Below, piece by piece: positions 6,928-60,968 of a stretch of DNA of 64,000 bases. The stretch comes from an uncultured bacterium (GTDB taxonomy: Bacteria > Margulisbacteria > WOR-1 > XYC2-FULL-46-14): positions 14,971 to 78,970 of the forward strand of contig CAYQVW010000004.1 of assembly GCA_964421245.1 (NCBI GenBank), written 5' to 3'. The notes beneath the pieces are model-generated. The model was not told the origin of the DNA. It saw only the letters and a program-made list of their open reading frames with translations, and searched no databases. The number at the start of each line of letters is the position of its first letter. Position 1 is the stretch's first letter. Position numbers and translations under genes: made by a program.

Positions 6928-8448
6928 ATGATTAAAGGATCTAGAATAAACGGACTAGTTGGTATAGACCGTGGGGAAATAACACGTGTAGTTAGAGTTA
7001 CAATTAAAAAAAGTGAAATAATAGAAAGGGAGGGAGGAGAAGGTAGAACAAGACATTATTTTAAATTTGGACACAATATCTGGCTAAGCGCAAGATTTAT
7101 GGAAAAGTATGCTTTATCTCTTGGAGATGTTCTCGATTTAGAAGCCGCAGGTAACACTCCACGTTTCTTGCTTAAGAAAGAAAAAGGCCAAATAAAAAGA
7201 ATCCCTTTAATACATAATTATGATCTAACTAGCGGTAAACCTATTTTAGACCATACATCTTCATCAAATATTCATGCAGAAAAAATGGTCGGTCTCCGAG
7301 TTTTAGAATACACCGAAACTTCTTCTGGCAAATTTGGAGGGAGACTGACTGCCGGAGGAAGAGATTTGCCCCTTTTAACACATGTCCCATGGGAAGTAGC
7401 CCCTATTCCTATTTCTGCACTTGTTGAAGATGGGAAAAGAGTCCTTTTTTTTAGCGATAGGGAAACATTTACAATGGAAGAATGGGGACTAGTAAAATTA
7501 ATCGTTCAAAGCCGAGGAACAATCCTAGACCTACAACCTAAAGCAGACGAAATATCTACAATAGAAGAGGCAGCAAAGAATCAAAATGAGGCAAGACTTT
7601 TAAAGACAACCGGACTAGTAAGGGGCCATAATTTATATATTGCTGCCTTTTGTTTTAACCCGTGCTCAGGATTAACTTATTTAGACCAAGCAATGGAATT
7701 GAGAAGGGAAATAGTACTAAGAAAAATGCACCTTGCAAGGAGAGCGGAATATGGAAGGTGGGCACGAAAAAATCTGGGACCATCCCACTCTTCATTACAA
7801 GATAAAGCAAAAATTTTAGCAAATTATATTGGAAGTAATGTTCATAATCTAACCAGCGTCGCATATTTCTTAGAAAAACTTGCAAGATTAGCAGATCAAA
7901 ACGAAGGAATTCAAAGATTTTTTACCGCACTTCCTTTGGTTTTTGGATTGAATCGTACTATTGATGTCAGGATGGTAGGAGCATGTAGACTACTTGCTCA
8001 AGATATGGACTCAAACTACATTCCAAGATGGATTTTAAATCATCCTCCGGCCGAATCAAAACAACAGATTGCTCTATTTAGAAATAGGAGGAGAACATTA
8101 AAACTTGAAGATGAACCAAACTTCAAAACCCCCTGGAAAGAACTTCCCCCAGAACCAAAAGGGATTGATCCAAAACCAAAAACAAAACCTAAGCCAAAGA
8201 ATCCAGTATTTAATTATGATCAACTTAATGCCCTTTATATGATAATGGTAGAAAGGTTTAATGCTTCTTTCAATGCCTTAGCAGCCGGCATGGCAGCAAG
8301 CAGTCTTATCGTTCAAATAAACCGGAGACTTAAGAACCTAGAAAAAACTCCAAGAAAAAGTGGATCTAGTGATGAGACTAAAGAACTACAAGCCCTGAAA
8401 GGATTAACAAAAGCCTTTTATAGAAGAATCTCTTCTGACAGTATTTGA
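6928..8448 (+). CDS. hypothetical protein (506 aa, orphan, basic, Pro/Lys-rich linker)
   Basis: Long ORF wedged between lon and ileS; I recognise no family. The N-terminal 90 aa vaguely resemble an AbrB/SpoVT-like swapped hairpin (NIWLSARFMEKYALSLGDVLDLEA). There is a DPKPKTKPKPKNP linker. Confidence 0.6.
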   Translation: MIKGSRINGLVGIDRGEITRVVRVTIKKSEIIEREGGEGRTRHYFKFGHNIWLSARFMEKYALSLGDVLDLEAAGNTPRFLLKKEKGQIKRIPLIHNYDLTSGKPILDHTSSSNIHAEKMVGLRVLEYTETSSGKFGGRLTAGGRDLPLLTHVPWEVAPIPISALVEDGKRVLFFSDRETFTMEEWGLVKLIVQSRGTILDLQPKADEISTIEEAAKNQNEARLLKTTGLVRGHNLYIAAFCFNPCSGLTYLDQAMELRREIVLRKMHLARRAEYGRWARKNLGPSHSSLQDKAKILANYIGSNVHNLTSVAYFLEKLARLADQNEGIQRFFTALPLVFGLNRTIDVRMVGACRLLAQDMDSNYIPRWILNHPPAESKQQIALFRNRRRTLKLEDEPNFKTPWKELPPEPKGIDPKPKTKPKPKNPVFNYDQLNALYMIMVERFNASFNALAAGMAASSLIVQINRRLKNLEKTPRKSGSSDETKELQALKGLTKAFYRRISSDSI

Positions 8449-24949: not shown

Positions 24950-26368
24950 ATGGAAGGATCAGTAACACTTACAATGTCGGATAAAGATTTTTATAAATTA
25001 CAAAAGAGAATCTTTCGCTATAAAGCATGGGGGATCGGTTTCTATTTTAATCCTAAGACAAAAGCTCCCCATGGCTATACAACCCCAAAAGCAATTTATT
25101 ATCCAGAATGCCGATTTCCTCGCAAAGCATTCAACAAATTAAGCTTTGAAAAATTAAGCTTTGAAGCAAGAAAAAGTTATCCTAAAGATATTATCAAAAA
25201 AAGTCCTTTCTTCAACTTGATGTTATGTCCTAATCTAACTCGTTATTTTAGGAGTCATGAGGTTTTCTGGTTCATGGCAAAACAGGTAGCGGAGCACCCA
25301 CATGTAAAAGCAAATAGAGAGGTAAGACTGCTCTATCCAGGCTCCGGAGCACATATTGCCCCATTAGATCTATTCCACAACCTAATCCAGCAAGGAAAGA
25401 TTGATCGAGCTAGTGCAATATTTACAGAGGTTGATATTAATTCGCTAAGCCGGATCAGGATTCTATTGGACGGATTAGCCTCCAGAGGTATTTATAAAAA
25501 ATTAAAGGAGAAGCCACCTAAAAATCGCCTTGGAGGGAGAAAAACTGTTTTCACTTTTGAATATAAAAACAAACCAATCTCCCTAACTTTTGCATTTAAA
25601 ATGAGTGGAAAAAAATATTATTCGGACAAACAATTAAAAAGGGCTCCAGAGGTAGTAGTAATCCACGACAGCAGCGGCATTTTTGGATCTATGTCTTTTT
25701 CTTTATTAGAGACACTTATCAAATCCATATCAAGCATAAAGGCAATTAAACACCCCCCTCTAATTATTATGGAAAATTTTAATCACGAATATCTATCGGC
25801 AAATAAAGGAACAATAAGCACAGAACCTTATATAGGAAAGAAGGAAGTAATCCCTTTCCCATATGGACACAGAGACAAGAAAACTCTAAAGGTAAAAAAG
25901 CTCCCTTTTATCTTTACTGAGTTGGTCTCCCCTCTTTATGGCTCAGCAATTCTGTATAAACCTGATCTAAAATTTTGGAGATTGTTTTCTCATGCTGAAA
26001 TAGACGCATACTTTGAAACCTTTGACAAATTAGATAAATTAAATAAATATGGAATTATGAGCGAGTTCGAAATTAATATTGACGGGATAACTATCACACT
26101 GCAAAATATAAAAGATAAAGACCCGGTTCTTTCAAAAGTTAATCCGGATAAAATTGTCAAAGGGTTTAAAGAATATTGTCACAATTTCTTTGGCAGAATT
26201 TTTAATCTGATTAATAAGATAAAAAAAGACTGTCCTAAAACCGCATTAATGATAGAAACAAAAGCCAAAAAAGTATTCAAAGAATTAAAGCAAAAATACC
26301 CCTATCTTTCCGATGTAGTAAAAAAGAAATATCCAGATCAGATTAAACACTTGATGAGCAAACACTGA
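24950..26368 (+). CDS. hypothetical protein (472 aa orphan; possible Rossmann/methyltransferase-like core)
   Basis: No family recognised. VRLLYPGSGAHIAP ... IFTEVD weakly resembles SAM-MTase motifs I/II. It contains a 15-bp tandem duplication (NKLSFEKLSFE, about 25135-25164). Confidence 0.55.
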   Translation: MEGSVTLTMSDKDFYKLQKRIFRYKAWGIGFYFNPKTKAPHGYTTPKAIYYPECRFPRKAFNKLSFEKLSFEARKSYPKDIIKKSPFFNLMLCPNLTRYFRSHEVFWFMAKQVAEHPHVKANREVRLLYPGSGAHIAPLDLFHNLIQQGKIDRASAIFTEVDINSLSRIRILLDGLASRGIYKKLKEKPPKNRLGGRKTVFTFEYKNKPISLTFAFKMSGKKYYSDKQLKRAPEVVVIHDSSGIFGSMSFSLLETLIKSISSIKAIKHPPLIIMENFNHEYLSANKGTISTEPYIGKKEVIPFPYGHRDKKTLKVKKLPFIFTELVSPLYGSAILYKPDLKFWRLFSHAEIDAYFETFDKLDKLNKYGIMSEFEINIDGITITLQNIKDKDPVLSKVNPDKIVKGFKEYCHNFFGRIFNLINKIKKDCPKTALMIETKAKKVFKELKQKYPYLSDVVKKKYPDQIKHLMSKH

Positions 26369-27185: not shown

Positions 27186-28463
<1,278 letters not shown>

Positions 28464-29372
28464 TTAATTTCCCTCCTTAAATAATGGTGTACTTAAATAT
28501 CTTTCTGCCGTATCTGGTAACACGACTACAATAAGTTTATCTTTATTTTCGGGCCTCGCGGCCATATTTTGAGCTGCGACTAGCGCCGCTCCAGATGAGA
28601 TACCGACCATTAGCCCATCTGTCTTTGCAATAGTTCGGGCAGCTTTAAAAGCTGCCCCTCCGTCCACTTTTATAACTTCATCATAAACCTTGGTATTCAA
28701 AACATCCGGAACAAACCCGGCTCCAATTCCCTGAATCTTGTGAGGACCAGGTCCACCACCCGATAAAACTGCGGAATCGGACGGTTCAACTGCAACAATT
28801 TTAATAGATTTCTTCTTCTTTTTCAAAACCTCTCCTACTCCAGTAATTGTTCCACCGGTTCCAATTCCGGCAACAAAAATATCAATTTTTCCATCGGTAT
28901 CTTCCCAGATCTCCTCAGCTGTTGTTGTGCGATGAATCTCTGGATTTGCCGGATTGGTAAATTGCTGCGGCAAAAAATAATTTTTATTCTTCTTTGCTAA
29001 CTCATCAGCCTTATCAATAGCTCCCTTCATCCCCTTTGCCCCTTCGGTTAAAACTAATTCTGCGCCTAAAAACTTTAATAGTGCTCGGCGTTCAATACTC
29101 ATAGTATCGGGCATTGTAAGGATAACTTTATATCCCTTTGCAGCTCCAATCCAAGCTAAGGCAATCCCGGTATTTCCAGAAGTTGGTTCAACAATAACTG
29201 AACCTTTCTTTAATTTTCCATCTTTCTCGGCCGCCTCAATCATTGCTGTTCCAATTCGATCTTTTACCGAACTGGCTGGATTGAAAAACTCCAGCTTTGC
29301 CACGATCCCATCTTTTAGTTTTAAAAGCGGGGTCTTTCCTATTAATTCTGTTAAACTATTTACTACTTTCAT
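28464..29372 (-). CDS. cysK: cysteine synthase (CysK/CysM family)
   Basis: 302 aa with NPASSVKDR (PLP Lys), [10 protein letters not shown] and [10 protein letters not shown]. Confidence 0.92.
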
Positions 29373-29404
29373 TTTGTCCTCCTTTATTTTGATCTCGAAT
29401 CAAA

Positions 29405-29482
29405 ACCCTCACCCATCATATCCATCTTCCCTTCCTTCTTCTACACCCCTCTCCCATTGGGAGAGGGGAAGGGGGTGAGGGT
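29405..29482. repeat. GC-rich nested palindromic element (REP-like) between rrf2 and cysK
   Basis: Outer stem ACCCTCACCC (29405-14) / GGGTGAGGGT (29473-82). Inner stem CCCCTCTCCC (29446-55) / GGGAGAGGGG (29459-68). On the minus strand it is followed by TTTTG. It abuts the rrf2 stop codon. Confidence 0.8.
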
Positions 29483-29935
29483 CTAAATCGAATAATCCAA
29501 ATACTTTTTAGTTTTAGCAATATTCTTTTTCTGTTTCTCTTTCAAATCTTCAAAAGTGATGCCGTCGACCTTTTCAGCAATCATTTTACCAATATCACAA
29601 AAGACTTCACGCAAAACACAACTGCCGGAATAATTACAATTGGTCGGCTTTTGTGAAAAAACACAAGATATTGGCTCAACCGGGCCATCTATAAATCGAA
29701 CAATCTGCCCCAAAGTAATCTGGTTTGGCTTATGGGCCAACACATATCCCCCATTTCGTCCTCGAATGCTTTTAACAAAACCACCTTTCTTTAATTGTAG
29801 AAAAATCTGTTCCAAAAATTTATACGGAATATCCTGCCGTTTTGAAATCTCATCCACACTTTGTGGCTTTTCAAAATAAAAAGAGAGATCTAAAATCGCC
29901 TTAAGTGCATAATCCCCTTTATATGATATTTTCAT
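29483..29935 (-). CDS. Rrf2-family transcriptional regulator (CymR/IscR-like)
   Basis: 150 aa with a winged HTH (YALKAILDLS ... ISKRQDIPYKFLEQIFLQLKKGGFVKSIRGRNGGYVLA) and Cys residues in the C-terminal half. Confidence 0.88.
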   Translation of the reverse strand: MKISYKGDYALKAILDLSFYFEKPQSVDEISKRQDIPYKFLEQIFLQLKKGGFVKSIRGRNGGYVLAHKPNQITLGQIVRFIDGPVEPISCVFSQKPTNCNYSGSCVLREVFCDIGKMIAEKVDGITFEDLKEKQKKNIAKTKKYLDYSI

Positions 29936-29948
29936 TTTTCTCCTTTGT

Positions 29949-30011
29949 CCTCATTCTTACCCTCTCCATTTTTATGGAGAAGGTGTCCCGACAGAGTCGG
30001 GACGGGTGAGG
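29949..30011. repeat. second copy of the GC-rich palindromic element family, in the rrf2 5' untranslated region
   Basis: Outer CCTCA (29949-53) / TGAGG (30007-11). Inner hairpins at 29960-29983 (CCTCTCCAT tttt ATGGAGAAGG) and 29985-30003 (GTCCCGAC aga GTCGGGAC). It shares the CCTCACCC and CTCTCC/GGAGAG words with 29405-29482. Confidence 0.7.
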
Positions 30012-30036
30012 AAAATACTCTACTATCTCTATCGGA

Positions 30037-30066
30037 ATAATAGCATATTAACTTGCATGCTGTCAA
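30037..30066 (-). promoter_or_regulatory. sigma70-like promoter for rrf2-cysK-metY (TTGACA-18-TATTAT)
   Basis: On the minus strand: TTGACAgcatgcaagttaatatgcTATTAT, about 95 nt upstream of the rrf2 ATG. The spacer is itself partly palindromic (GCAT...ATGC). Confidence 0.55.
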
Positions 30067-30084
30067 GGGTTTATTTTTAAATAT

Positions 30085-30276
30085 TTAACCGCCACCAACA
30101 AAAGAGACTATCTCCACCCTATCCTTATCTTTAAGTGAGGCATTTTCTTCACGAGGAATGATTTGACCATTTAATTCAATTACAATATTTCCACGATGCA
30201 GGCTTAATTCATTAATTAATTCTTGAATATTTTTTGATTTTGATTCTTTTTCTTTCCCATTAATAATAAGTTTCAT
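30085..30276 (-). CDS. thiS: ThiS/MoaD-family sulfur carrier protein (ends in GG)
   Basis: MKLIINGKEKE ... ELNGQIIPREENASLKDKDRVEIVSFVGGG. I prefer the ATG at 30276; the track start at 30291 is a GTG within a heptad repeat. Confidence 0.85.
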   Translation of the reverse strand: MKLIINGKEKESKSKNIQELINELSLHRGNIVIELNGQIIPREENASLKDKDRVEIVSFVGGG

Positions 30277-30277
30277 A

Positions 30278-30305
30278 CTATCCCCTATCACCTATACCCT
30301 ATCCC
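30278..30305 (-). repeat. four tandem heptads (GGGATAG GGTATAG GTGATAG GGGATAG) spanning the thiF stop and the thiF-thiS spacer
   Basis: Read on the minus strand. Same consensus as the heptads at 26936-26970. It covers the last four thiF codons, the TAG stop and the SD region of thiS. Confidence 0.8.
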
Positions 30306-30897
30306 CCAACAATTTATAAACCGCCCAGGCCTGATAAGCTGCGGCCACAGAAACACGAGCAGACATTAGTCCAATTGTCCCGCCACAGCATGATTTCTCA
30401 TCTCCAATTAAAACAAAATTCGGTCGTTTAAAATTTATTTTTATATCTTGAGGGTCTTGATCCCCCGCAATCCCCGAAACCGCCACCACCTTAAAATTAT
30501 TTTCGAGCAAAATATTAACCAACATCGCCTTTTGATCCGCCAGATCAAAACACTCCGCCACAACCTCACAACTTTCAAATGTTTTAATTATATTTTTCGG
30601 ATTTAGTGCTTGTTTAGAAATTAGGATTTGGGATTTAGGATTTATTTTCAAGAGGACATCTTTCAAAGTTTCGACTTTGGGTTTGCCTACATCCTCTTGA
30701 AAATACTGTTGTCGATTCAAATTGGATGGTTCAATAACATCAAAATCAACTAAAACTAAATTATCTGCTCCCATGCGGACAAGGTTAATTGCAAGATTTG
30801 AGCCCAATCCACCACAACCGGCAATCCCAATTTTTTTATCTTTTAGCTTTTCCCTTACACCTTTGGGATTCCGCTCAAAAATTGATTCAATACTCAT
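30292..30897 (-). CDS. thiF: ThiF/MoeB-family sulfur-carrier adenylyltransferase (short form)
   Basis: 201 aa with a Rossmann GxGxxG (IGIAGCGGLGSNLA) and DFDVIEPSNLNRQ. Confidence 0.85.
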   Translation of the reverse strand: MSIESIFERNPKGVREKLKDKKIGIAGCGGLGSNLAINLVRMGADNLVLVDFDVIEPSNLNRQQYFQEDVGKPKVETLKDVLLKINPKSQILISKQALNPKNIIKTFESCEVVAECFDLADQKAMLVNILLENNFKVVAVSGIAGDQDPQDIKINFKRPNFVLIGDEKSCCGGTIGLMSARVSVAAAYQAWAVYKLLGDRV

Positions 30898-30961: not shown

Positions 30962-31849
30962 TTAGCCCAAGTCAACATACTCTGGAACATAAAACAAAAA
31001 TTTATACTTAGGAGAACCTCTTCTTTGATATTCCATCAATCTCTTAACTGAACCTATTTCTTGACAAAGAAGACTATTCCCTTCCCTTAAAAGAACATCT
31101 GTTCTACAAAATATCCACCTATCTCCTTGAAACAAAAAATCAGCCATTTGAGTATCTGGAAACGGAAACGAACCATCAATTATTGCTTCTGTCAATCTAA
31201 CAACCGCTCGAAATATCGCCATTTCTTCATCCATTGGATATATCGGCTCATTATCACAATTAAAATCATAGGACATTAGAGGAACAAATATTGTAACAGG
31301 AAGAGCTCCTCCTTCCATAGGATAAGGAAACCCTTTTAGAGCACCTTCTGGATATCCTTGCTCATCAACAATTAATCTGTCTGAATCACCATCCTTAAAA
31401 CGAGCAACAAACGACAAGTCAGGGGAATAATCCTCAACATGCACAACTTTTTGACAATCATCAAACGCTGATAAACCAGTTGCGTTAACGATAGAAGTAA
31501 AATCCTTAAAAAAGCTAACAACATTACTCCTATTATGAATAAAATCAGACTCACAAACCCCACCCAACTCCAAACATTTACCACCATAAAATTCTGAATT
31601 AGCAAAACCAAGATGCACTTTAACCATTTCTGCCATCTGCTGCAGCACACCATCTTCTTCGCTATATCTTGTTGCAAAAGCTAGAGCAATATCATTCTCA
31701 GCTAATCTGCCAAGTTGCCTAACAGCTTGCGCTGGCCTTGCAACCAATTCAGACCCAACACCACCAACCTCATATTTGGGCCACACTACTGTCCCTTGAC
31801 AATCTATAATCAAGGATCCTCTTGGTTTACTCGCAATGTTTCTTATCAT
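30962..31849 (-). CDS. hypothetical protein (about 295 aa), partner of the PEP-utilising-type enzyme; possible HAD-like phospho-acceptor motifs
   Basis: No family recognised. LIIDCQGTVVW (DxxGT) and FKDGDSDRLIVDEQG are the only suggestive blocks. The ATG at 31849 lies 2 nt after the upstream stop; the track start at 31873 overlaps the upstream gene. Confidence 0.55.
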   Translation of the reverse strand: MIRNIASKPRGSLIIDCQGTVVWPKYEVGGVGSELVARPAQAVRQLGRLAENDIALAFATRYSEEDGVLQQMAEMVKVHLGFANSEFYGGKCLELGGVCESDFIHNRSNVVSFFKDFTSIVNATGLSAFDDCQKVVHVEDYSPDLSFVARFKDGDSDRLIVDEQGYPEGALKGFPYPMEGGALPVTIFVPLMSYDFNCDNEPIYPMDEEMAIFRAVVRLTEAIIDGSFPFPDTQMADFLFQGDRWIFCRTDVLLREGNSLLCQEIGSVKRLMEYQRRGSPKYKFLFYVPEYVDLG

Positions 31850-31851
31850 AA

Positions 31852-33390
31852 TTAAACGTACAACAACCCCCATCCATCTTCATCATTTGCAGCAAGGTGG
31901 AGAGGTTGTGGCAATTCATAAGCACTAATCTCCACATCCTTTTTATCCATTATTTTCGTCTCTCGCAATTTACTTATTTCTTCCAATCTCCAAACGATTG
32001 AAGCATCTTCCGTATGAACAATCGCCTTCTCTTCATCAATACAATTGAGTGCAAGGTGTTGCAATCCACTACCACCAGATTTACCATGCTCCTTCTCATC
32101 AACAACAAGCACTGCATTGGCATATGGCAAAATAAACTTTCTAATACTTCTTTTGCCCTGATTCTTTTCTATTTTACTTTTAAAAACTATCAAACAATTC
32201 GGATAAGCCTCGCAAGCCTCTTTTATTAATTGCCCCTCGTCTTCTGACAAAGAAGAACCTCCAGATCGAACTACAACAATATGACTATAAGACCCCAGAT
32301 CCTGGCCAATCACACTATCACTCTCTAGCATTATTTTTTCTTGTCCTATAGCTGGCCTTGGGATCAGCTTTCTTCGCTTCAACGGTCTTGCCTGAAGAAA
32401 ATATCTTTCCCCATTTCTAAGCCAAGCCCATTCAATATCAAGAGGAGCCCCGGCTCTTTCTTCTAACAATAAAGCTAGATTTGCCAATACCACATCCTCA
32501 CGAGATGAACGAAATTCTTCTCTCCATAAACGATATAGTTCGCTACGAAATACCTCACTAAAACTATCAGGGATAAAAACTTCCTTCATTTGACCTTTTA
32601 CTAAATCAAAATAATAAAGCAAACTATTTAAGTTCGCAGGGCCTTCGAGCATTGAATCCAACAAGGTTCTGTCGTTAAAAATTATTGTTACCCCCATCCC
32701 CTCATCTTGTACTGCAGATAATCCAAAACCAAGCACAGCATTTACCTTGACCTTATGCACAAAAGAAGTATTAATTATCCCTGCCAGAGGAGGAAAAAAG
32801 AGTGAAGGATGGTCTTCCCAATTATCCCCGACTAAATCTTGAACAGCTATTGGCATTGGAGGTATTGCCTGACATCCGGATTTTTGAAAAAGCTCAAGAC
32901 CCTCCCCACCGTAAGTAGAATTTAAAACTCCCCTGAGTTTATTTGCAAATCCTTCTATTTCAAGATGAGTCAAATAGTCCCATGTGGCATAATCTGTCTT
33001 AAACTTGCCCGCTCCAGCTCGACCGATTTGATCCTCAATAATCGCCGAAGAGCGAATAGCTACTGCTGTTGGGAACCCTAAGTCACTTAAAATCTTAATA
33101 AGCAGAGCAATCTTTGTTCTGTTTAGACCCTGAATTTCCTGGGGATGTTTAACAGATTGCACTGGTAAATTAAAATAATCATCACAAACCACCAGAGTGT
33201 GAGGAACCTGATATACACCAATCTCATCTCGAGCCTGATCCAAAAACAATAAGCCCTCATTTTTTCCACCAACTGACCCATTTCCAAGCAGATGAATCCT
33301 GCCCGATTCACTTCGGTATAAATTCTTCCCCACAGCCTGAAACTGTCCTAAATTCCCAAAAACCTTAGAGCTTATTGTTCGACAATTCAT
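31852..33390 (-). CDS. PEP/pyruvate-binding ATP-grasp (PPDK_N-type) phosphotransferase with a swivel-domain-like C-terminus
   Basis: GNGSVGGKNEGLLFL, AIRSSAIIEDQIGRAGAGKFKTDY and LDIEWAWLRNGERYFLQARPLK occur in the order expected for the PEP synthase / PPDK / rifampicin phosphotransferase ATP-grasp domain. The C-terminal GKSGGSGLQHLALNC resembles the phospho-His loop. Confidence 0.65.
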   Translation of the reverse strand: MNCRTISSKVFGNLGQFQAVGKNLYRSESGRIHLLGNGSVGGKNEGLLFLDQARDEIGVYQVPHTLVVCDDYFNLPVQSVKHPQEIQGLNRTKIALLIKILSDLGFPTAVAIRSSAIIEDQIGRAGAGKFKTDYATWDYLTHLEIEGFANKLRGVLNSTYGGEGLELFQKSGCQAIPPMPIAVQDLVGDNWEDHPSLFFPPLAGIINTSFVHKVKVNAVLGFGLSAVQDEGMGVTIIFNDRTLLDSMLEGPANLNSLLYYFDLVKGQMKEVFIPDSFSEVFRSELYRLWREEFRSSREDVVLANLALLLEERAGAPLDIEWAWLRNGERYFLQARPLKRRKLIPRPAIGQEKIMLESDSVIGQDLGSYSHIVVVRSGGSSLSEDEGQLIKEACEAYPNCLIVFKSKIEKNQGKRSIRKFILPYANAVLVVDEKEHGKSGGSGLQHLALNCIDEEKAIVHTEDASIVWRLEEISKLRETKIMDKKDVEISAYELPQPLHLAANDEDGWGLLYV

Positions 33391-33437
33391 TACATTTCTG
33401 TATCATTAAAAGGAAAGAAAAATTTCAGATGATTTAA

Positions 33438-33445
33438 GTTATAAT
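33438..33445 (+). promoter_or_regulatory. GTTATAAT box 6 nt upstream of the ATG of the bioB 5' remnant (probable original bioB promoter)
   Basis: aaGTTATAATagttatATG. This is the same architecture as at ileS, bioA and the DUF362 gene. Confidence 0.5.
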
Positions 33446-33451
33446 AGTTAT

Positions 33452-33553
33452 ATGGATTATTTAAAACTATCTCAAGAATCAATTAAAAACAAGGGCATTT
33501 CACAAGAAACCACACTTAAATCAATAAAGTTGTTTCAAGTTGAGTTTTTATGA
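33452..33553 (+). pseudogene. remnant/duplicate of the bioB 5' end (33 codons, the first 26 homologous to bioB)
   Basis: MDYLKLSQESIKNKGISQETTLKSIK versus BioB MNFQKLSQESIKNRGITQETALELIK. By hand alignment, 60 of 78 nt are identical between 33452-33529 and 34259-34336. Confidence 0.75.
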
Positions 33554-33956
33554 TAAAATTAAGCAAATGGTTAATCCTCAAGCTACAATAGACTACTGGC
33601 TAAAATGCGCCAAGGAAGACCTTAAGGTGATGGGGCACCTTTTTGAAAAAGGCGATTACCACTATAGTTTATTTCTTGGACATCTATTAGTTGAAAAAAC
33701 CCTGAAGGCCTATTATGTCAAGATTAATAAAAATCATGCCCCCTATTCCCACAGCCTCATTTATCTAGCAGAAAAATCAGGATTAAAACTCAAAGAAAAC
33801 CAAATCTCCCTCCTTGAAGCAGTAAATCAATTCAATATTGAAGCCCGTTATCCTGATAAAAAATTTGAATTCTATAAACTTTGCACTAAAGAATTCGCTT
33901 CTCAATATATTTCCCAAATAAAGGAGTTCTACCAATGGCTCTTAATTCAGATATAA
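33540..33956 (+). CDS. HEPN domain protein (toxin-like partner of a minimal nucleotidyltransferase)
   Basis: LLVEKTLKAYYV ... PYSHSLIYLAEK ... NIEARYPD is typical of small HEPN proteins. The start may instead be the ATG at 33567. Confidence 0.75.
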   Translation: MSFYDKIKQMVNPQATIDYWLKCAKEDLKVMGHLFEKGDYHYSLFLGHLLVEKTLKAYYVKINKNHAPYSHSLIYLAEKSGLKLKENQISLLEAVNQFNIEARYPDKKFEFYKLCTKEFASQYISQIKEFYQWLLIQI

Positions 33957-34249
33957 AAAAGAAAGTAGAAAAATACTTGGAAGAGATAAAAAAACACCAA
34001 ATCAGCATTTTTAAGGCTTACCTGTATGGTTCTTATGCAAAAGGAAAAGCAAGAAAAGATAGCGATATTGATGTTGCGATAATTTCACCAGATTTTTCTG
34101 GCAATCGTTATTTTGACTCTCTCAAAATCATTCCTTTCCGAAGAAAAATTGATAATAGAATTGAGCCTGTAACCTTTAAGCCCGAAGATTTCGAAGAGAC
34201 AGATCCTCTCGCCTCAGAAATAAAATCCAATGGGATAGAATTAAAATAG
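33935..34249 (+). CDS. minimal nucleotidyltransferase (MNT) domain protein
   Basis: YLYGSYAKGKARKDSDIDVAII matches the GSxxxG...DxD pol-beta superfamily motif. It overlaps the HEPN gene by 22 nt. Confidence 0.8.
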   Translation: MALNSDIKKKVEKYLEEIKKHQISIFKAYLYGSYAKGKARKDSDIDVAIISPDFSGNRYFDSLKIIPFRRKIDNRIEPVTFKPEDFEETDPLASEIKSNGIELK

Positions 34250-34258
34250 TTTTCACGA

Positions 34259-35242
34259 ATGAACTTCCAAAAACTATCCCAAGAATCAATCAAAAACAGG
34301 GGCATTACCCAAGAAACTGCCCTTGAACTAATAAAAACATCAGATCAGGATACTTTTGAGCTTTTAGCTGCTGCCAATAAAATCCGCCAGCATTTTAAAG
34401 GAAACAAAATTAATCTCTGCGCTATCGTAAATGCAAAATCAGGCAAATGTTCTGAGAACTGTTCTTTCTGCGCACAATCTGCTCATCATAAAACCAAAGT
34501 CAAGTCTTACCCCCTTATGGAATCAGATGAAATAGTTAAAAACGCCAAAGCTGCTGAAAAAAATATGGGAGCAACCTGCTTCTCTATCGTAACATCAGGA
34601 AAGGCTGTAAATAAAACCGAAGATAAACAAAAAATAGGATCAGCTCTTGATGGAATCACTAACGAAACCGATATGAATCGTTGCGTATCTACTGGAACAC
34701 TTGATAAAGAGACAATATTAGAATTAAAAAAGAAGGGACTAAAGCGCCTACACCACAATTTAGAAACTGCTAAGTCATATTTTGATAAAGTCTGTACAAC
34801 TCACACTTACCAAGAAAGAATTGAGACATTAAAAGCTGCCAAAGAAGCGGGAATAGAAATTTGCTCAGGCGGAATTTTTAATCTTGGAGAATCATTAGAG
34901 CAAAGAGTAGAGTTAGCCTATGCCATAAAAGAACTAGATCCAGTTTCTGTTCCTATTAATATTTTAAATCCGATTGAAGGAACCCCAGCACATAAAAATT
35001 ATAAACCGATTTCCCCTCTTGAGGTTTTACGCTTAATTGCAACATATCGCTTTATTATGCCAGATAAAGATATTGGCCTTTTTGGTGGCCGAGAATTTGC
35101 TTTGAAAGAATTACAACCATTAATGTTCATAGCTGGAGCAAATGTGACTCTAGTTGGAGATTATTTAACAGTAAAAGGACAAGAAGCCAGTAAAGATTTG
35201 CAGATGATTAAGGATTTAGAGCTAGAAATCTGTCAATATTAA
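34259..35242 (+). CDS. bioB: biotin synthase
   Basis: 327 aa with the radical SAM motif CSENCSFCAQS and typical BioB C-terminal blocks. Confidence 0.93.
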   Translation: MNFQKLSQESIKNRGITQETALELIKTSDQDTFELLAAANKIRQHFKGNKINLCAIVNAKSGKCSENCSFCAQSAHHKTKVKSYPLMESDEIVKNAKAAEKNMGATCFSIVTSGKAVNKTEDKQKIGSALDGITNETDMNRCVSTGTLDKETILELKKKGLKRLHHNLETAKSYFDKVCTTHTYQERIETLKAAKEAGIEICSGGIFNLGESLEQRVELAYAIKELDPVSVPINILNPIEGTPAHKNYKPISPLEVLRLIATYRFIMPDKDIGLFGGREFALKELQPLMFIAGANVTLVGDYLTVKGQEASKDLQMIKDLELEICQY

Positions 35243-36061
35243 TACCACTGTCCAATAAAATAAACCTTTAAATCATCTGACGAAAAACAGGGCCGATGAC
35301 AGAGAAAGTTTGCGGGAAAATAACTCGGTGTAATATTCTGATAGCTTGATCCATCCGAACTTACCGTATAAAGATCGAATTTCCCTTCTGTTCCAATGGC
35401 TGAAACCATAAAAACTAGCTTATCTCCACTATTTGACCAATTCGCAATCCCTTGACTGTAATTGGTAGTAGTTATCTTAGCTTCCCCAGTCCCTTCAGCA
35501 TAAATTGTATATAAATTATAATTCCCATGCACACTTGTATCATCATCCATCCGCTCAAAAACGATTTTTCTCCCATCCGGTGAAAATCTTGGATCATAAT
35601 CTCCAAAAGGGAGATTCGCATTCCCCCACCCAATCCGGATCTGCATCATGACCTCCTGAATCATATAACAACTGCTGATTCGTTCCGTCCAAATTCATAG
35701 TATAAAGATCAAGCGTTGAACCAGCTCTCCAAGAAAGAAAGGTAATTTTAGTATCGGTTGAATTAAAAGAAGCGTAAGTATCCAGAGTACTATTTGTAGT
35801 TAAACGAGTAGGATTATTTCCATCAATATCAATTGTATAAATTTCTTCTGCCTGTGTAAAAACAAACTTATCTCCCCCTTTACTAATTTGCAAACAATCA
35901 AGCAAGTCAGAAGAGCTGTAAATTAGTTCAATATCATTGCTTGATAGAGTCAACGCATAAATTCCCCAGGTATCTTGTTGTGGAACGGTTTTGGAAGTTG
36001 TAGTTTGACTACAACCCATCAGGCAAAAAAGAAGCATCAAAAAACAGATCAACCTATACAT
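35239..36061 (-). pseudogene. PD40/TolB-like beta-propeller lipoprotein, split by a frameshift at a G5 run
   Basis: ORFs 35594-36061 (lipobox LMGCSQ) and 35239-35664 overlap. Removing one G from GGGGG (plus-strand C5 at 35623-35627) joins ...HDADPDWVG to NANLPFGDYDPRFSPDGRKIVF. The repeats are PD40-like. Confidence 0.65.
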
Positions 36062-58691: not shown

Positions 58692-60968
58692 ATGGCAGAT
58701 ATAATAATAAAAACGGCCCCACAGGAACACAAACCATATCTCTTTGCCGCAGACAAGGCTGGAGACAATAACGGAAAAATAAACACCCCCCAAGAAGCAC
58801 AAGCAGCAAGAGAAGTTTTCTGTGATAATCAACCCTCGCAATGTAGAGCTAATCTAAGAGATAATAAAGGATTATTCGGTTTCTTAGAAAAACACAAATA
58901 CGACCTAACTAAACCATACTTTAATAGTGTTTCATTAGTATTATATTTGGGAAGCAAAATCAGAACTTGGGAAAAAATTATTAAAACCACCAAGCAACCA
59001 GATCAGTTTTGCAAAGTAATCGGAGAATTAAACAAAGCTATACAATCAAACATTCCTATAGTACTAAAAAGAAGAATACTCTTTCTTCTTATAACTATAT
59101 TAAAAACAACTAGTCCAGTCCATAAACATAGAGAAGCCCTGGCAAACGCTATAACGCTTAAAAATATCCTTTTAAGTTTTTCTCGTTCGAGCTCAGATAA
59201 ATCACTACAAAAATTAGCGAAAGAAGGCATAAAACAAGTTTTAACCGGGACATTTTTAGACACCCCGTATCAATCAATAAAAGATGGGATGATGCAGTTG
59301 TTTGGAAACATCCTAACCGATCCAAACATTTCTAGCACCATACATCAGGAGACATTAAGTCTTCTAATCAAATTTTGTAGTCAAGGCCGGCCAGGTAGAG
59401 TTACCTATCTTGAAAACTCTCACGTAATATTTAATGATTTACTAAAAAAACAAGGAAATGACAATACAATCAAAAAAATTAACGGCCTCCTTCTTAAAGA
59501 ATTAGATAAACAACACAAGCTATTAGCAGGTGAAATTAGGGGATTCTCTAAGGATCCCAGGGAAACACAAAGATTATTACTATTGATATTTGGAGTGATT
59601 CAAAAACGGTTCAAGTCTACAACTTTACTATTAAATAATTTACATTTACTAATAGTTGCGTTAAAAAAATTAGGGTTATCAGTTAACAAAATCAAAAAAA
59701 CACTTTTTGCTTTCCTAAAAAACGCTCGACCAATTACTGTACCCATGACAATTGGCGGCCCATCAGCAATAAGACGAGGGGGAGCACCTTATGCTTTCAG
59801 AAATGTTAGTAGCATTTTAGCATCGACCACTAAAACAATAAAAATGCTCGAAGCACTGGGATTAAACAAAAAACAGATTCTTGAATTAACCTTACCATTA
59901 CTGCTTGAAAAACCAGATCTTTATTACTCTTCTGTAGTTGATTATGCAATAGAAATCATGGCCAGGATAATAAGCTTTCTTAAAAGTAAAGGCCATGACA
60001 AAAACGCTATCTACACAAGCCTTAAAACCGTTATTGATGCAACCAAGGGGAAAGCTCTAATATATACCGCTTTATCTACCTTTTTTGCATCATTAACTTA
60101 TTCAAAATTTTCCAGTAGTGAATTTAGAGGAAAATTATCTGTTAAAGCTCTATGTAAAGAAATTAATAAAAAAAGTCGTAGTGCTTCTTCTTTTCGTTCT
60201 AAGGATAATACGATCAAAAGATTGAATGAATACGTAAATACCAGATGGTATCGGGATTTCCTTCCAACTAAAGGCGGGCAGAAAGCTATACTTCCTGCTG
60301 AAATAAAACCATATTTAAAAAGCATGCCTCGACAAAGGTATTTTGCAACTCTAATGAACAATTACGGCAATCGACTCCTATTAGAAGCTAACTATCCAAA
60401 CCACTGCCCCAAGAAGAGAAGAAGGATAAACTTAGTCAAAGCCGCTAATTTTATAAAGGCCGTGGCAAATTTGCCTTTTGGTGGACCAACTACCTATGGC
60501 GATCCTGGAAAAAATTATAATTACAAAATGCAACTTATGATGCGAATTCCCTTCTTGATAGATATTGGAGCAAGTGAACAACAAATTGCAAATTTTGCGA
60601 AGAGAGAATCGCTCAAACTTACTGGAGTTCCGATACGCTATTGGCACAACCTAATAAATCTCGTTAGCTACTTTCACAACAATGGCTATTCCGCACAAGA
60701 AATATTTTATCATTTATATAGAACCAGACATCTTCATTATGCTCATTATTACAACCAGAGATTTAAAATTATGCTTTCTTTTCTCAAAGAATTGGATGCA
60801 CTAAAAATAGCAGGACAAAGGAAAAACAAACTATTAGAATTGTCCTATCGTTGTGGAAAACATGACTATAGATTTGGCTGCAAAAATATCTTAACAAGAC
60901 TTAAGGCCGGAATGACTCATGATAAAATAAAGGCCCAACTACAAAAAAGTTACCTATGCCCACCGTAG
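58692..60968 (+). CDS. hypothetical protein (758 aa orphan, predicted all-alpha, Lys-rich)
   Basis: Long ORF immediately downstream of tRNA-Leu. No family recognised. The leucine-rich helical repeats are reminiscent of HEAT/ARM-like solenoids. Confidence 0.6.
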   Translation: MADIIIKTAPQEHKPYLFAADKAGDNNGKINTPQEAQAAREVFCDNQPSQCRANLRDNKGLFGFLEKHKYDLTKPYFNSVSLVLYLGSKIRTWEKIIKTTKQPDQFCKVIGELNKAIQSNIPIVLKRRILFLLITILKTTSPVHKHREALANAITLKNILLSFSRSSSDKSLQKLAKEGIKQVLTGTFLDTPYQSIKDGMMQLFGNILTDPNISSTIHQETLSLLIKFCSQGRPGRVTYLENSHVIFNDLLKKQGNDNTIKKINGLLLKELDKQHKLLAGEIRGFSKDPRETQRLLLLIFGVIQKRFKSTTLLLNNLHLLIVALKKLGLSVNKIKKTLFAFLKNARPITVPMTIGGPSAIRRGGAPYAFRNVSSILASTTKTIKMLEALGLNKKQILELTLPLLLEKPDLYYSSVVDYAIEIMARIISFLKSKGHDKNAIYTSLKTVIDATKGKALIYTALSTFFASLTYSKFSSSEFRGKLSVKALCKEINKKSRSASSFRSKDNTIKRLNEYVNTRWYRDFLPTKGGQKAILPAEIKPYLKSMPRQRYFATLMNNYGNRLLLEANYPNHCPKKRRRINLVKAANFIKAVANLPFGGPTTYGDPGKNYNYKMQLMMRIPFLIDIGASEQQIANFAKRESLKLTGVPIRYWHNLINLVSYFHNNGYSAQEIFYHLYRTRHLHYAHYYNQRFKIMLSFLKELDALKIAGQRKNKLLELSYRCGKHDYRFGCKNILTRLKAGMTHDKIKAQLQKSYLCPP

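Follow-up and report, generated by a model that had tools for sequence, protein, structure and literature searches.

The closest described counterpart of the protein examined here is VadK (Rv1127c) of Mycobacterium tuberculosis, a truncated derivative of pyruvate phosphate dikinase (PPDK) that consists of an ATP-binding domain and a His domain and autophosphorylates His422 with ATP and Mg (PMC13400623). In a 64,000-nt stretch from an uncultured bacterium (GenBank contig CAYQVW010000004.1, positions 14,971 to 78,970; this whole stretch is hereafter the window), two minus-strand genes follow one another at positions 30962-33390, the first encoding a 512-aa protein with an ATP-grasp domain of the phosphoenolpyruvate (PEP)-utilising kind (the large protein) and the second a 295-aa protein (the partner). 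The initial annotation regarded the two as a self-contained module that passes phosphate from ATP to a His and on to the partner. We lean, by a small measure, towards a different reading: a divergent two-domain, His-autophosphorylating dikinase lies beside an enzyme resembling the HAD superfamily, and the coupling of their genes is fortuitous or specific to this lineage.

In VadK a His domain, and in the large protein a putative one, follows the grasp domain directly within a chain of about 490-510 aa that lacks a PEP/pyruvate-binding domain, and the catalytic or candidate His (His422 in VadK, His445 in the large protein) lies ~70-90 residues from the C-terminus. However, VadK is a recent truncation of a canonical PPDK, whereas the large protein and its relatives share 22-25% identity with canonical dikinases (E 1e-9 at best), and their candidate His domain is invisible to the Pfam model PF00391, carries L-Q-H in place of T-S-H, and ends in an extra C-terminal beta extension. 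The ATP-grasp is of a kind already known, and for the two-domain layout VadK set a precedent in 2026; what is new is the extreme divergence of the His-like domain and the tiny HAD-like family to which the partner belongs.

Other dikinases resemble the pair in part. Rifampin phosphotransferase (RPH; 5HV1, 5FBS; PMC4844700) provides the best structural match of the ATP-grasp domain (Foldseek E=4.8e-12), and the G-S-x-L-S-H loop of three RPH-like proteins (P0010-12) comes closest to the G-S-G-L-Q-H of the large protein, but RPH carries between its grasp and His domains a rifampin-binding domain of ~400 aa that the large protein lacks, and the NCBIfam model RIF_Ptrans_rph scores 13 bits on the large protein against a cutoff of 999. 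With PEP synthase (PpsA) and PPDK the large protein shares a PPDK_N domain bearing GGK, RSSxxxED, DxE and QxR, followed directly by a domain that in the large protein is only putatively of the His type; it differs from them in having neither the PEP-utilizers_C TIM-barrel nor the regulatory Thr before the His, and the PpsA equivalog models reach ~22 bits against cutoffs of 600-880. In HpeHI, CreHI and PpsAB (PMC12167813), dikinase functions are likewise split across adjacent genes and the ATP-grasp is homologous to that of RPH, but there one subunit consists of the ATP-grasp by itself and the other joins the His domain to the substrate-binding domain, whereas here the grasp domain shares a chain with the putative His domain and the neighbour is HAD-like rather than similar to a rifampin (RIF)-binding domain. 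The partner, in turn, recalls the capless (C0) HAD enzymes KdsC/YrbI in its predicted Rossmannoid core, with an Asp ending strand 1 and then a helical turn; unlike them it matches no HAD profile hidden Markov model (HMM) and has Glu or Gln two positions after the Asp, and its conserved C-terminal half of ~110 aa (PxPxGG, FxxY) has no counterpart.

The large protein: ATP-grasp and candidate phospho-His domains

The features of the pair that bear on the large protein are as follows.

31852-33390, minus strand: large gene (512 aa), an open reading frame (ORF) for a divergent two-domain dikinase-like protein
32356-33390, minus strand: ATP-grasp (PPDK_N) domain, residues ~1-345, from invariant columns and HMM alignment to the PEP synthases 8a8e and 2ols
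33262-33270, minus strand: GGK, G41-K43, within the ATP-grasp domain
31855-32355, minus strand: C-terminal domain of ~167 aa, putative swivel/phospho-His domain, from the secondary structure of the model and hhalign
32056-32058, minus strand: codon of His445, the candidate phospho-acceptor, invariant in G-[ST]-G-L-Q-H
31847-31854, minus strand: gene junction TAA-tt-ATG with a 2-nt spacer, read directly from the sequence
30962-31849, minus strand: partner gene (295 aa), an ORF whose N-terminal core is predicted to be HAD-like and whose C-terminal half is uncharacterised

Both ORFs and the coupled junction are present as first annotated. At the junction (gtt TAA tt ATG ata), the stop codon of the large gene occupies 31854-31852 and the ATG of the partner 31849-31847, a spacing compatible with translational coupling. 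An alternative in-frame ATG at 31873 would lengthen the partner to 303 aa; the 295-aa form is favoured because its start (MIRNIASKPRGSLIIDCQGT) coincides, in the alignment, with the starts of three distant homologs, and public gene calls place the start at the same codon.

The identity of the ATP-grasp domain is clear. PPDK_N (PF01326) matches residues 107-341 with 56.1 bits against a Pfam cutoff of 27 (E=5e-15), and the three hallmark blocks that had been quoted from the translation are all in place: GGK is accompanied by RSSxxxED at residues 113-120, D318/E320 and Q333/R335. A profile of six family sequences matches solved PEP synthases and RPH, with RSSAxIED and DIEWA...Q.RP falling on the canonical blocks, and G42, K43, G46, R113, S114, S115, E119, D120, D318, E320, Q333 and R335 remain invariant when genuine PPDK_N proteins are aligned. 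These nucleotide and Mg residues presumably correspond to K22, R92, D321, E323, Q335 and R337 of PPDK, and the domain keeps every nucleotide- and Mg-binding residue. An AlphaFold2 model built from 10 sequences (predicted local distance difference test, pLDDT, 81; predicted template-modelling score, pTM, 0.83) finds its best PDB matches by Foldseek in RPH (5hv1, E=4.8e-12), PpsA (2ols) and PPDK (1dik), at E 5e-12 to 1e-8, and the ATP-grasp ligases MdnC, Ddl and TTL rank lower (E~1e-4 to 1e-3). The NCBIfam equivalogs of PEP synthase, rifamycin phosphotransferase and PigC/RedH give no more than local matches, far below their cutoffs (13-23 bits vs 600-1350), and the large protein is none of these enzymes. 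Neither Pfam nor NCBIfam shows a substrate-binding domain or a third, acceptor-binding domain (PEP-utilizers_C or RIF-binding), in agreement with what the initial annotation had noticed, and the protein ends at residue 512.

A word-indexed search returned five relatives of the large protein, one of them 99% identical and the other four at 32-35% identity, to which a tandem paralog (P0018) adds. The family comprises at least six members, this being the yield of the word-indexed search only, so that more members and contexts may exist. A profile search of the family adds only remote PPDK_N proteins (E>=1e-8), and a genome scan returned only the two metagenome-assembled genomes (MAGs) already known.

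The C-terminal domain is probably a phospho-His carrier, although a very divergent one. All six members, at ~30-35% identity, share the block D431...G440-x-G442-L-Q-H445-x-x-L448, as well as a C-terminal beta extension with conserved P496, D503 and G508. In the AlphaFold2 model, an N-terminal hairpin and two beta-alpha units lie upstream of the His445 loop; the loop itself (434-442) has low pLDDT and is followed by a helix (444-453) that starts at Q444/H445, and then by a strand. Swivelling His domains have their secondary-structure elements in the same order. When the domain family was compared by hhalign with the PF00391 domains of four distant hits (P0010-13), the one local alignment obtained scored 21.2 (P=0.0085, probability 4.7%) and placed GSGLQHLAL on GSxLSHSA, His on His. 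None of 100 column-shuffled controls reached that score (11.4+-2.3, maximum 18.0), and a reversed control gave 11.5; shuffled-column nulls of this kind are lenient. The initial description of these ~165 aa as loosely resembling a swivelling phospho-His domain is in line with the invariant His loop and the weak but non-random match; the PF00391 profile does not recognise them.

Population variation may touch this gene. The window has four other contigs identical to it at 100%, and a variant contig (ENA ERZ23499185 scaffold_26655) is identical over 31678-34245 save for two differences: a single-nucleotide polymorphism at 32014, in a third codon position, and an 18-nt in-frame deletion at 33269-33286, between TTGGA direct repeats. 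The deletion turns HLLGNGSVGGKNEG into HLLGKNEG, so that the nucleotide-binding GGK loses its invariant G41/G42, and represents either a hypomorphic or inactive population allele or an assembly slip. The same contig overlaps only ~170 nt of the partner and shows zero differences there.

The partner and its four-member family

A word-indexed search with the partner retrieved only the partner itself, and it has no match in Pfam, NCBIfam or PADLOC. Because an exhaustive phmmer search of 1.84e9 representatives finds three relatives (P0015, 2.5e-11; P0016, 6e-8; P0017, 5e-4) and no others, the partner belongs to a real though tiny family of four members. Nothing confirmable came out of metagenome scans that used the partner alignment or P0015 as the query. 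Three segments of the partner matter for what follows.

31790-31804, minus strand: D16-C-Q-G-T20, candidate motif I of the HAD type where predicted strand 1 ends, with D16, G19 and T20 invariant
31427-31438, minus strand: V-E139-D140-Y141, whose acidic pair is invariant and closes a predicted strand (135-141), from the alignment and model
31355-31399, minus strand: FKDGDSDRLIVDEQG, a window-specific insertion, gapped in P0015-17 and within a segment (143-181) of pLDDT<50

The LIIDCQGTVVW that had drawn attention to the partner is present and sits in a predicted fold that is HAD-like. Across the four-way alignment, motif I reads D-x-[EQ]-G-T, the position two after the Asp being E in each of the three relatives and Q in the window partner. 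Motif IV, in contrast, had been placed at FKDGDSDRLIVDEQG, which is gapped in all three relatives and hence no conserved motif; the E139-D140 pair is a better candidate. The column of T60, a candidate motif II, holds T, T, S and T in the four members, and further invariants are P175/P177/G180/G181 and, towards the C-terminus, F284/Y287.

A HAD-type N-terminal core is reasonably likely. The AlphaFold2 model of the partner (pLDDT 58, pTM 0.68) is Rossmannoid, with a strand at 11-16 that ends at D16, a helix at 17-21, and strands at 54-59, 85-88 and 135-141. Capless HAD phosphatases (KdsC/YrbI, KDN-9-P phosphatase) make up more than 40 of its top 50 Foldseek matches in the PDB (best E=8.8e-4), and in BFVD HAD-like hydrolases come first (E=6e-4, 260 aligned columns), the HAD fold hits of both libraries together spanning E 6e-4 to 1e-2. 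When the family was aligned by hhalign with KdsC (sequence validated against 2r8e), D16 fell on the nucleophile Asp and T60 on the motif II Thr, with a score of 20.1 (P=0.043; null 13.6+-2.2, maximum 21.0). Enolase-phosphatase E1 (validated against 1yns) gave 23.9 vs a null maximum of 20.6, over only 21 columns at motif I (DIEGT), and the D-x-E-G-T variant of motif I also occurs in the E1 enzymes 1yns and 2g80.

Two more specific identities for the partner were considered and rejected. Membership among the E1 enzymes fails on the confinement of the similarity to the 21 columns at motif I. A regulator of the PSRP/PDRP type finds no DUF299 (Kinase-PPPase) match and no GxxxxGK[ST] P-loop in any member, and the target loop of the large protein is L-Q-H, not T-S-H, without the regulatory Thr two residues before the His.

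Genomic contexts and competing explanations

If the two proteins formed one conserved system, their families should be found side by side. The independent contexts available are four for the large family and three for the partner family, on short contigs.

P0002 (large family; Candidatus Saganbacteria MAG): alone, with a divergent cupredoxin/COX2 pair on one side and an opposite-strand LAGLIDADG gene on the other
P0003 (large family): monocistronic, flanked by a divergent radical-SAM gene and a convergent leucyl-tRNA synthetase (LeuRS) gene
P0004 (large family): after a glycosyltransferase (GT4) gene, and followed by a coupled tandem paralog of 507 aa
P0005 (large family): directly after a GT4 gene
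P0015 (partner family): monocistronic, with divergent PmbA/TldD and convergent PTA genes, on four contigs
P0016 (partner family): before an unannotated gene of 387 aa
P0017 (partner family): after ribF

Queried with the partner and the profile of its family, tblastn and hmmsearch detect no partner homolog in any of the four large-family contexts, and the reciprocal searches detect no homolog of the large protein in any of the three partner-family contexts. We are fairly confident that the two families lack conserved synteny. Because they occur independently elsewhere, the two do not make up an obligate two-component machine, and the pair looks like a chance or lineage-specific juxtaposition rather than a conserved two-gene system. 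The self-contained module of the initial annotation, in which phosphate passes from ATP through His to the partner, finds no support in this comparison, whose outcome is the lack of synteny that the annotation itself had named as refuting.

Several of these contexts have features of their own. The 507-aa gene downstream of P0004 was considered as a longer form of the partner and rejected, as it encodes P0018, the tandem paralog of the large protein; in this MAG the stop of the P0004 gene overlaps the start of the P0018 gene (L007, 4596-7663; L021 is the same region). In P0018 a Cys replaces the invariant Arg of RSS and a Ser the Trp of DIEWA, substitutions by which the paralog may be degenerate, regulatory or the subunit of a heterodimer. 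A tblastn comparison suggests that the P0004 gene call is N-terminally short by ~25 aa. On this locus (L007, 2939-4532) and on the P0005 contig, from two related metagenomic genomes, a conserved string of a LiaF-TM small protein, DUF5652 and GT4 directly precedes the large-protein homolog, a context that hints at a cell-envelope or glycan-related role for these homologs.

Composition and gene order suggest that the large gene is no newcomer. The G+C content of the pair (0.39-0.41) is the same as that of its flanks; its base composition is native, and comparison with the neighbours gives no compositional sign of recent transfer. The label of accessory patch that had been given to the surroundings is therefore apt for the HEPN/MNT insertion near the large gene and not for the pair itself. 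In the window and in the Saganbacteria MAG alike, the large gene lies a few kb from an Rrf2-MetY-CysK cluster. The two organisms are related: identity between them is 77% for MetY, 66% for the CysK-like PALP protein, 48% for Rrf2 and 35% for the large protein; because it lies near the same cluster, yet is only 35% identical, the large gene looks like a resident, fast-evolving chromosomal gene.

The extent of the transcription unit is less simple than first proposed. Downstream of the partner lie two further genes on the same strand.

30292-30897, minus strand: thiF, Pfam ThiF 4.8e-33, downstream of the partner
30085-30291, minus strand: thiS, with a C-terminal GGG, Pfam ThiS 2.1e-13, downstream of thiF

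Because only 64 nt, in which we found no terminator-like site, separate the partner from thiF-thiS, a two-gene operon is not established, and the transcription unit may comprise all four genes. The gap contains one promoter-like match, and such matches are no more numerous than in shuffled sequence. Upstream of the large gene is a divergent intergenic region of 149 nt. Searches of the locus for a riboswitch (SAM, TPP or other) or another Rfam element gave only sub-threshold chance hits.

According to the reading we lean towards, the large protein would belong with PpsA, PPDK and rifampin phosphotransferase to the lineage of PEP-utilising dikinases, as a minimal member that has diverged strongly. 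By homology with these enzymes, ATP held in the grasp domain would (pyro)phosphorylate His445, and the His domain would then swing and pass the phosphoryl group to a protein or small-molecule acceptor encoded elsewhere. The partner would have in its N-terminal half a HAD-type Rossmannoid core, in which strand 2 ends in a Thr and strand 4 in the acidic pair, and would act as a phosphatase or phosphotransferase through Asp16 as the nucleophile in D-x-Q/E-G-T. At most, both enzymes, expressed together and possibly with thiF-thiS, would work on one phospho-metabolite in this organism, one supplying a kinase step and the other a phosphatase step; they may also be mere neighbours. The data directly show the ORFs, the identity of the ATP-grasp domain, the conserved His and Asp motifs and the lack of conserved synteny, whereas autophosphorylation, the swivel mechanism, the HAD chemistry and any shared substrate are inferred.

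A number of observations weigh against this reading. PF00391 is not detected in the window protein at E<=1, nor in any of the six separately scanned C-terminal domains at E<=10; a profile of the C-terminal domain retrieves no PEP-utilising chain from the PDB; and the hhalign probability of that domain is only 4.7%. For the partner, no HAD profile HMM matches any of the four members (Pfam, E<=10), and neither NCBIfam nor a PDB sequence-profile search gives a HAD match. Its model is of low confidence (pLDDT 58, 4 sequences) with fold E-values of only ~1e-3, the KdsC alignment is marginal, the null maximum of 21.0 exceeding the observed 20.1, and E or Q replaces the second Asp of motif I. Very few independent contexts (four and three), on short contigs, were available for comparison, and the 2-nt spacing does point, if weakly, to co-expression in the window organism.

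An alternative explanation abandons the dikinase altogether: the large protein might be an ATP-grasp of another type, a ligase or plain kinase, in which GSGLQH is convergent or coincidental, and the partner a non-HAD protein that is a mere neighbour. The undetected PF00391, the low hhalign probability, the presence of MdnC, Ddl and TTL in the Foldseek results (E~1e-4 to 1e-3) and the low confidence of the partner model favour it. However, dikinase-type grasp domains match 7-8 orders of magnitude better than ligases, the His and its loop are invariant at ~30-35% identity, the His-to-His alignment beats every shuffle, and the HAD signal recurs in two libraries and in the motif register, so that we regard this explanation as unlikely. 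A dedicated phosphorelay from ATP to His445 and on to Asp16 of the HAD-like partner, with the aspartyl-phosphate state doing the work, would account for the TAA-tt-ATG spacing, for the absence of an acceptor domain from the large protein and for the invariance of both the His and the Asp motifs; the Gln in place of Glu at Asp+2, unique to the window partner, would be expected to slow acyl-phosphate hydrolysis. It is nevertheless highly improbable, since the proteins fail to co-occur in the four and three contexts of their relatives, where reciprocal searches agree, and neither protein matches PADLOC (E<=1) or PHROGs, hence giving no hint of a defence module; the scans found nothing for the partner relatives either. 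To our knowledge, moreover, transfer from a dikinase-type phospho-His to a HAD Asp has no precedent. Marginally slimmer still is the chance that in this lineage the minimal dikinase and the HAD-like protein were recruited into a true His445-to-Asp16 phosphotransfer pair, fed by ATP, the Gln at Asp+2 stabilising the aspartyl phosphate. Were it so, the pair would represent a novel type of phosphorelay with no kinship to two-component systems, caught at its evolutionary origin, because the pairing exists in one known genome only.

Two further explanations give the partner a different place. It might supply in trans the substrate-binding module that the large protein lacks, the dikinase being split after its His domain; the tight coupling of the genes, the end of the large protein right after its His-like domain and the existence of two-component dikinases encoded by adjacent genes (PMC12167813) all accord with such a division. 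The known systems, however, keep the His domain with the substrate-binding domain and not with the ATP-grasp (PMC12167813), the partner bears no similarity to RIF-binding, HpeH-type or PEP-utilizers_C domains, and other members of the large family have no such partner, which means that the large protein must be capable of acting alone; we consider a split dikinase quite unlikely. We are just as sceptical of a role for the pair in the ThiF-ThiS and Cys/Met biosynthesis cluster, for example in making and removing a phosphorylated precursor such as an O-phospho-amino-acid for CysK/MetY-type enzymes, or with the partner as an E1-like enzyme of methionine salvage. The 64 nt without a terminator before thiF-thiS-Rrf2-CysK-MetY, the fact that in the Saganbacteria MAG, too, a few kb separate the large gene from Rrf2-MetY-CysK, and the E1-type D-x-E-G-T variant of 1yns and 2g80 argue for it. 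But the E1 similarity covers 21 columns around motif I, the other members of both families lie away from sulfur genes, no SAM, TPP or other riboswitch was found at the locus, and proximity in two related genomes may be inherited gene order.

If the favoured reading of a minimal dikinase beside a HAD-like enzyme is true, a layout of grasp and swivelling His domains without an acceptor domain, as in mycobacterial VadK, also arose in a very distant uncultivated lineage related to Saganbacteria. The sequence space of dikinase-type autokinases would be widened by a His domain too divergent for current HMMs, and the partner family, with its four members that HMMs miss, would be a candidate branch of the HAD superfamily. 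No concept changes with either protein and the pair is no conserved system; the value lies in better annotation and in a modest biochemical target.

Neighbouring genes

The neighbours named in the initial annotation (HEPN, MNT-type nucleotidyltransferase, BioB, ThiF and ThiS) were all confirmed. The HEPN/MNT cassette (33540-34249) is flanked by duplicated copies of the bioB 5' end, including its ATG, that are ~83% identical (33440-33545 and 34247-34352; core repeat 33463-33528 / 34270-34335), and the relic reads MDYLKLSQESIKNKGISQETTLKSIK vs MNFQKLSQESIKNRGITQETALELIK in the real BioB. It looks as though a toxin-antitoxin-like cassette inserted at the start of bioB, whose 5' end was duplicated and then restored, and before this insertion bioB probably had the large gene as its divergent neighbour.

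On the other side of the pair, the minus-strand genes at 27186-30897 are, in order, thiF, thiS, Rrf2, a CysK/CysM-like PALP gene and a MetY-like sulfhydrylase, an arrangement that suggests CysO-CysM-type or HcyS-type synthesis of Cys or homocysteine, dependent on a sulfur-carrier protein. In the Saganbacteria MAG, Rrf2-MetY-CysK occur without thiFS at the corresponding site.

Elsewhere in the window, three long plus-strand ORFs have no Pfam match at E<=1e-5 (58692-60968, 758 aa; 6928-8448, 506 aa; 24950-26368, 472 aa). At 35239-36061, on the minus strand, two overlapping ORFs of 155 aa and 141 aa match the PD40 and DUF5050 beta-propeller families and look like a single TolB-like/propeller gene split by a frameshift, whether as a pseudogene or by sequencing error.

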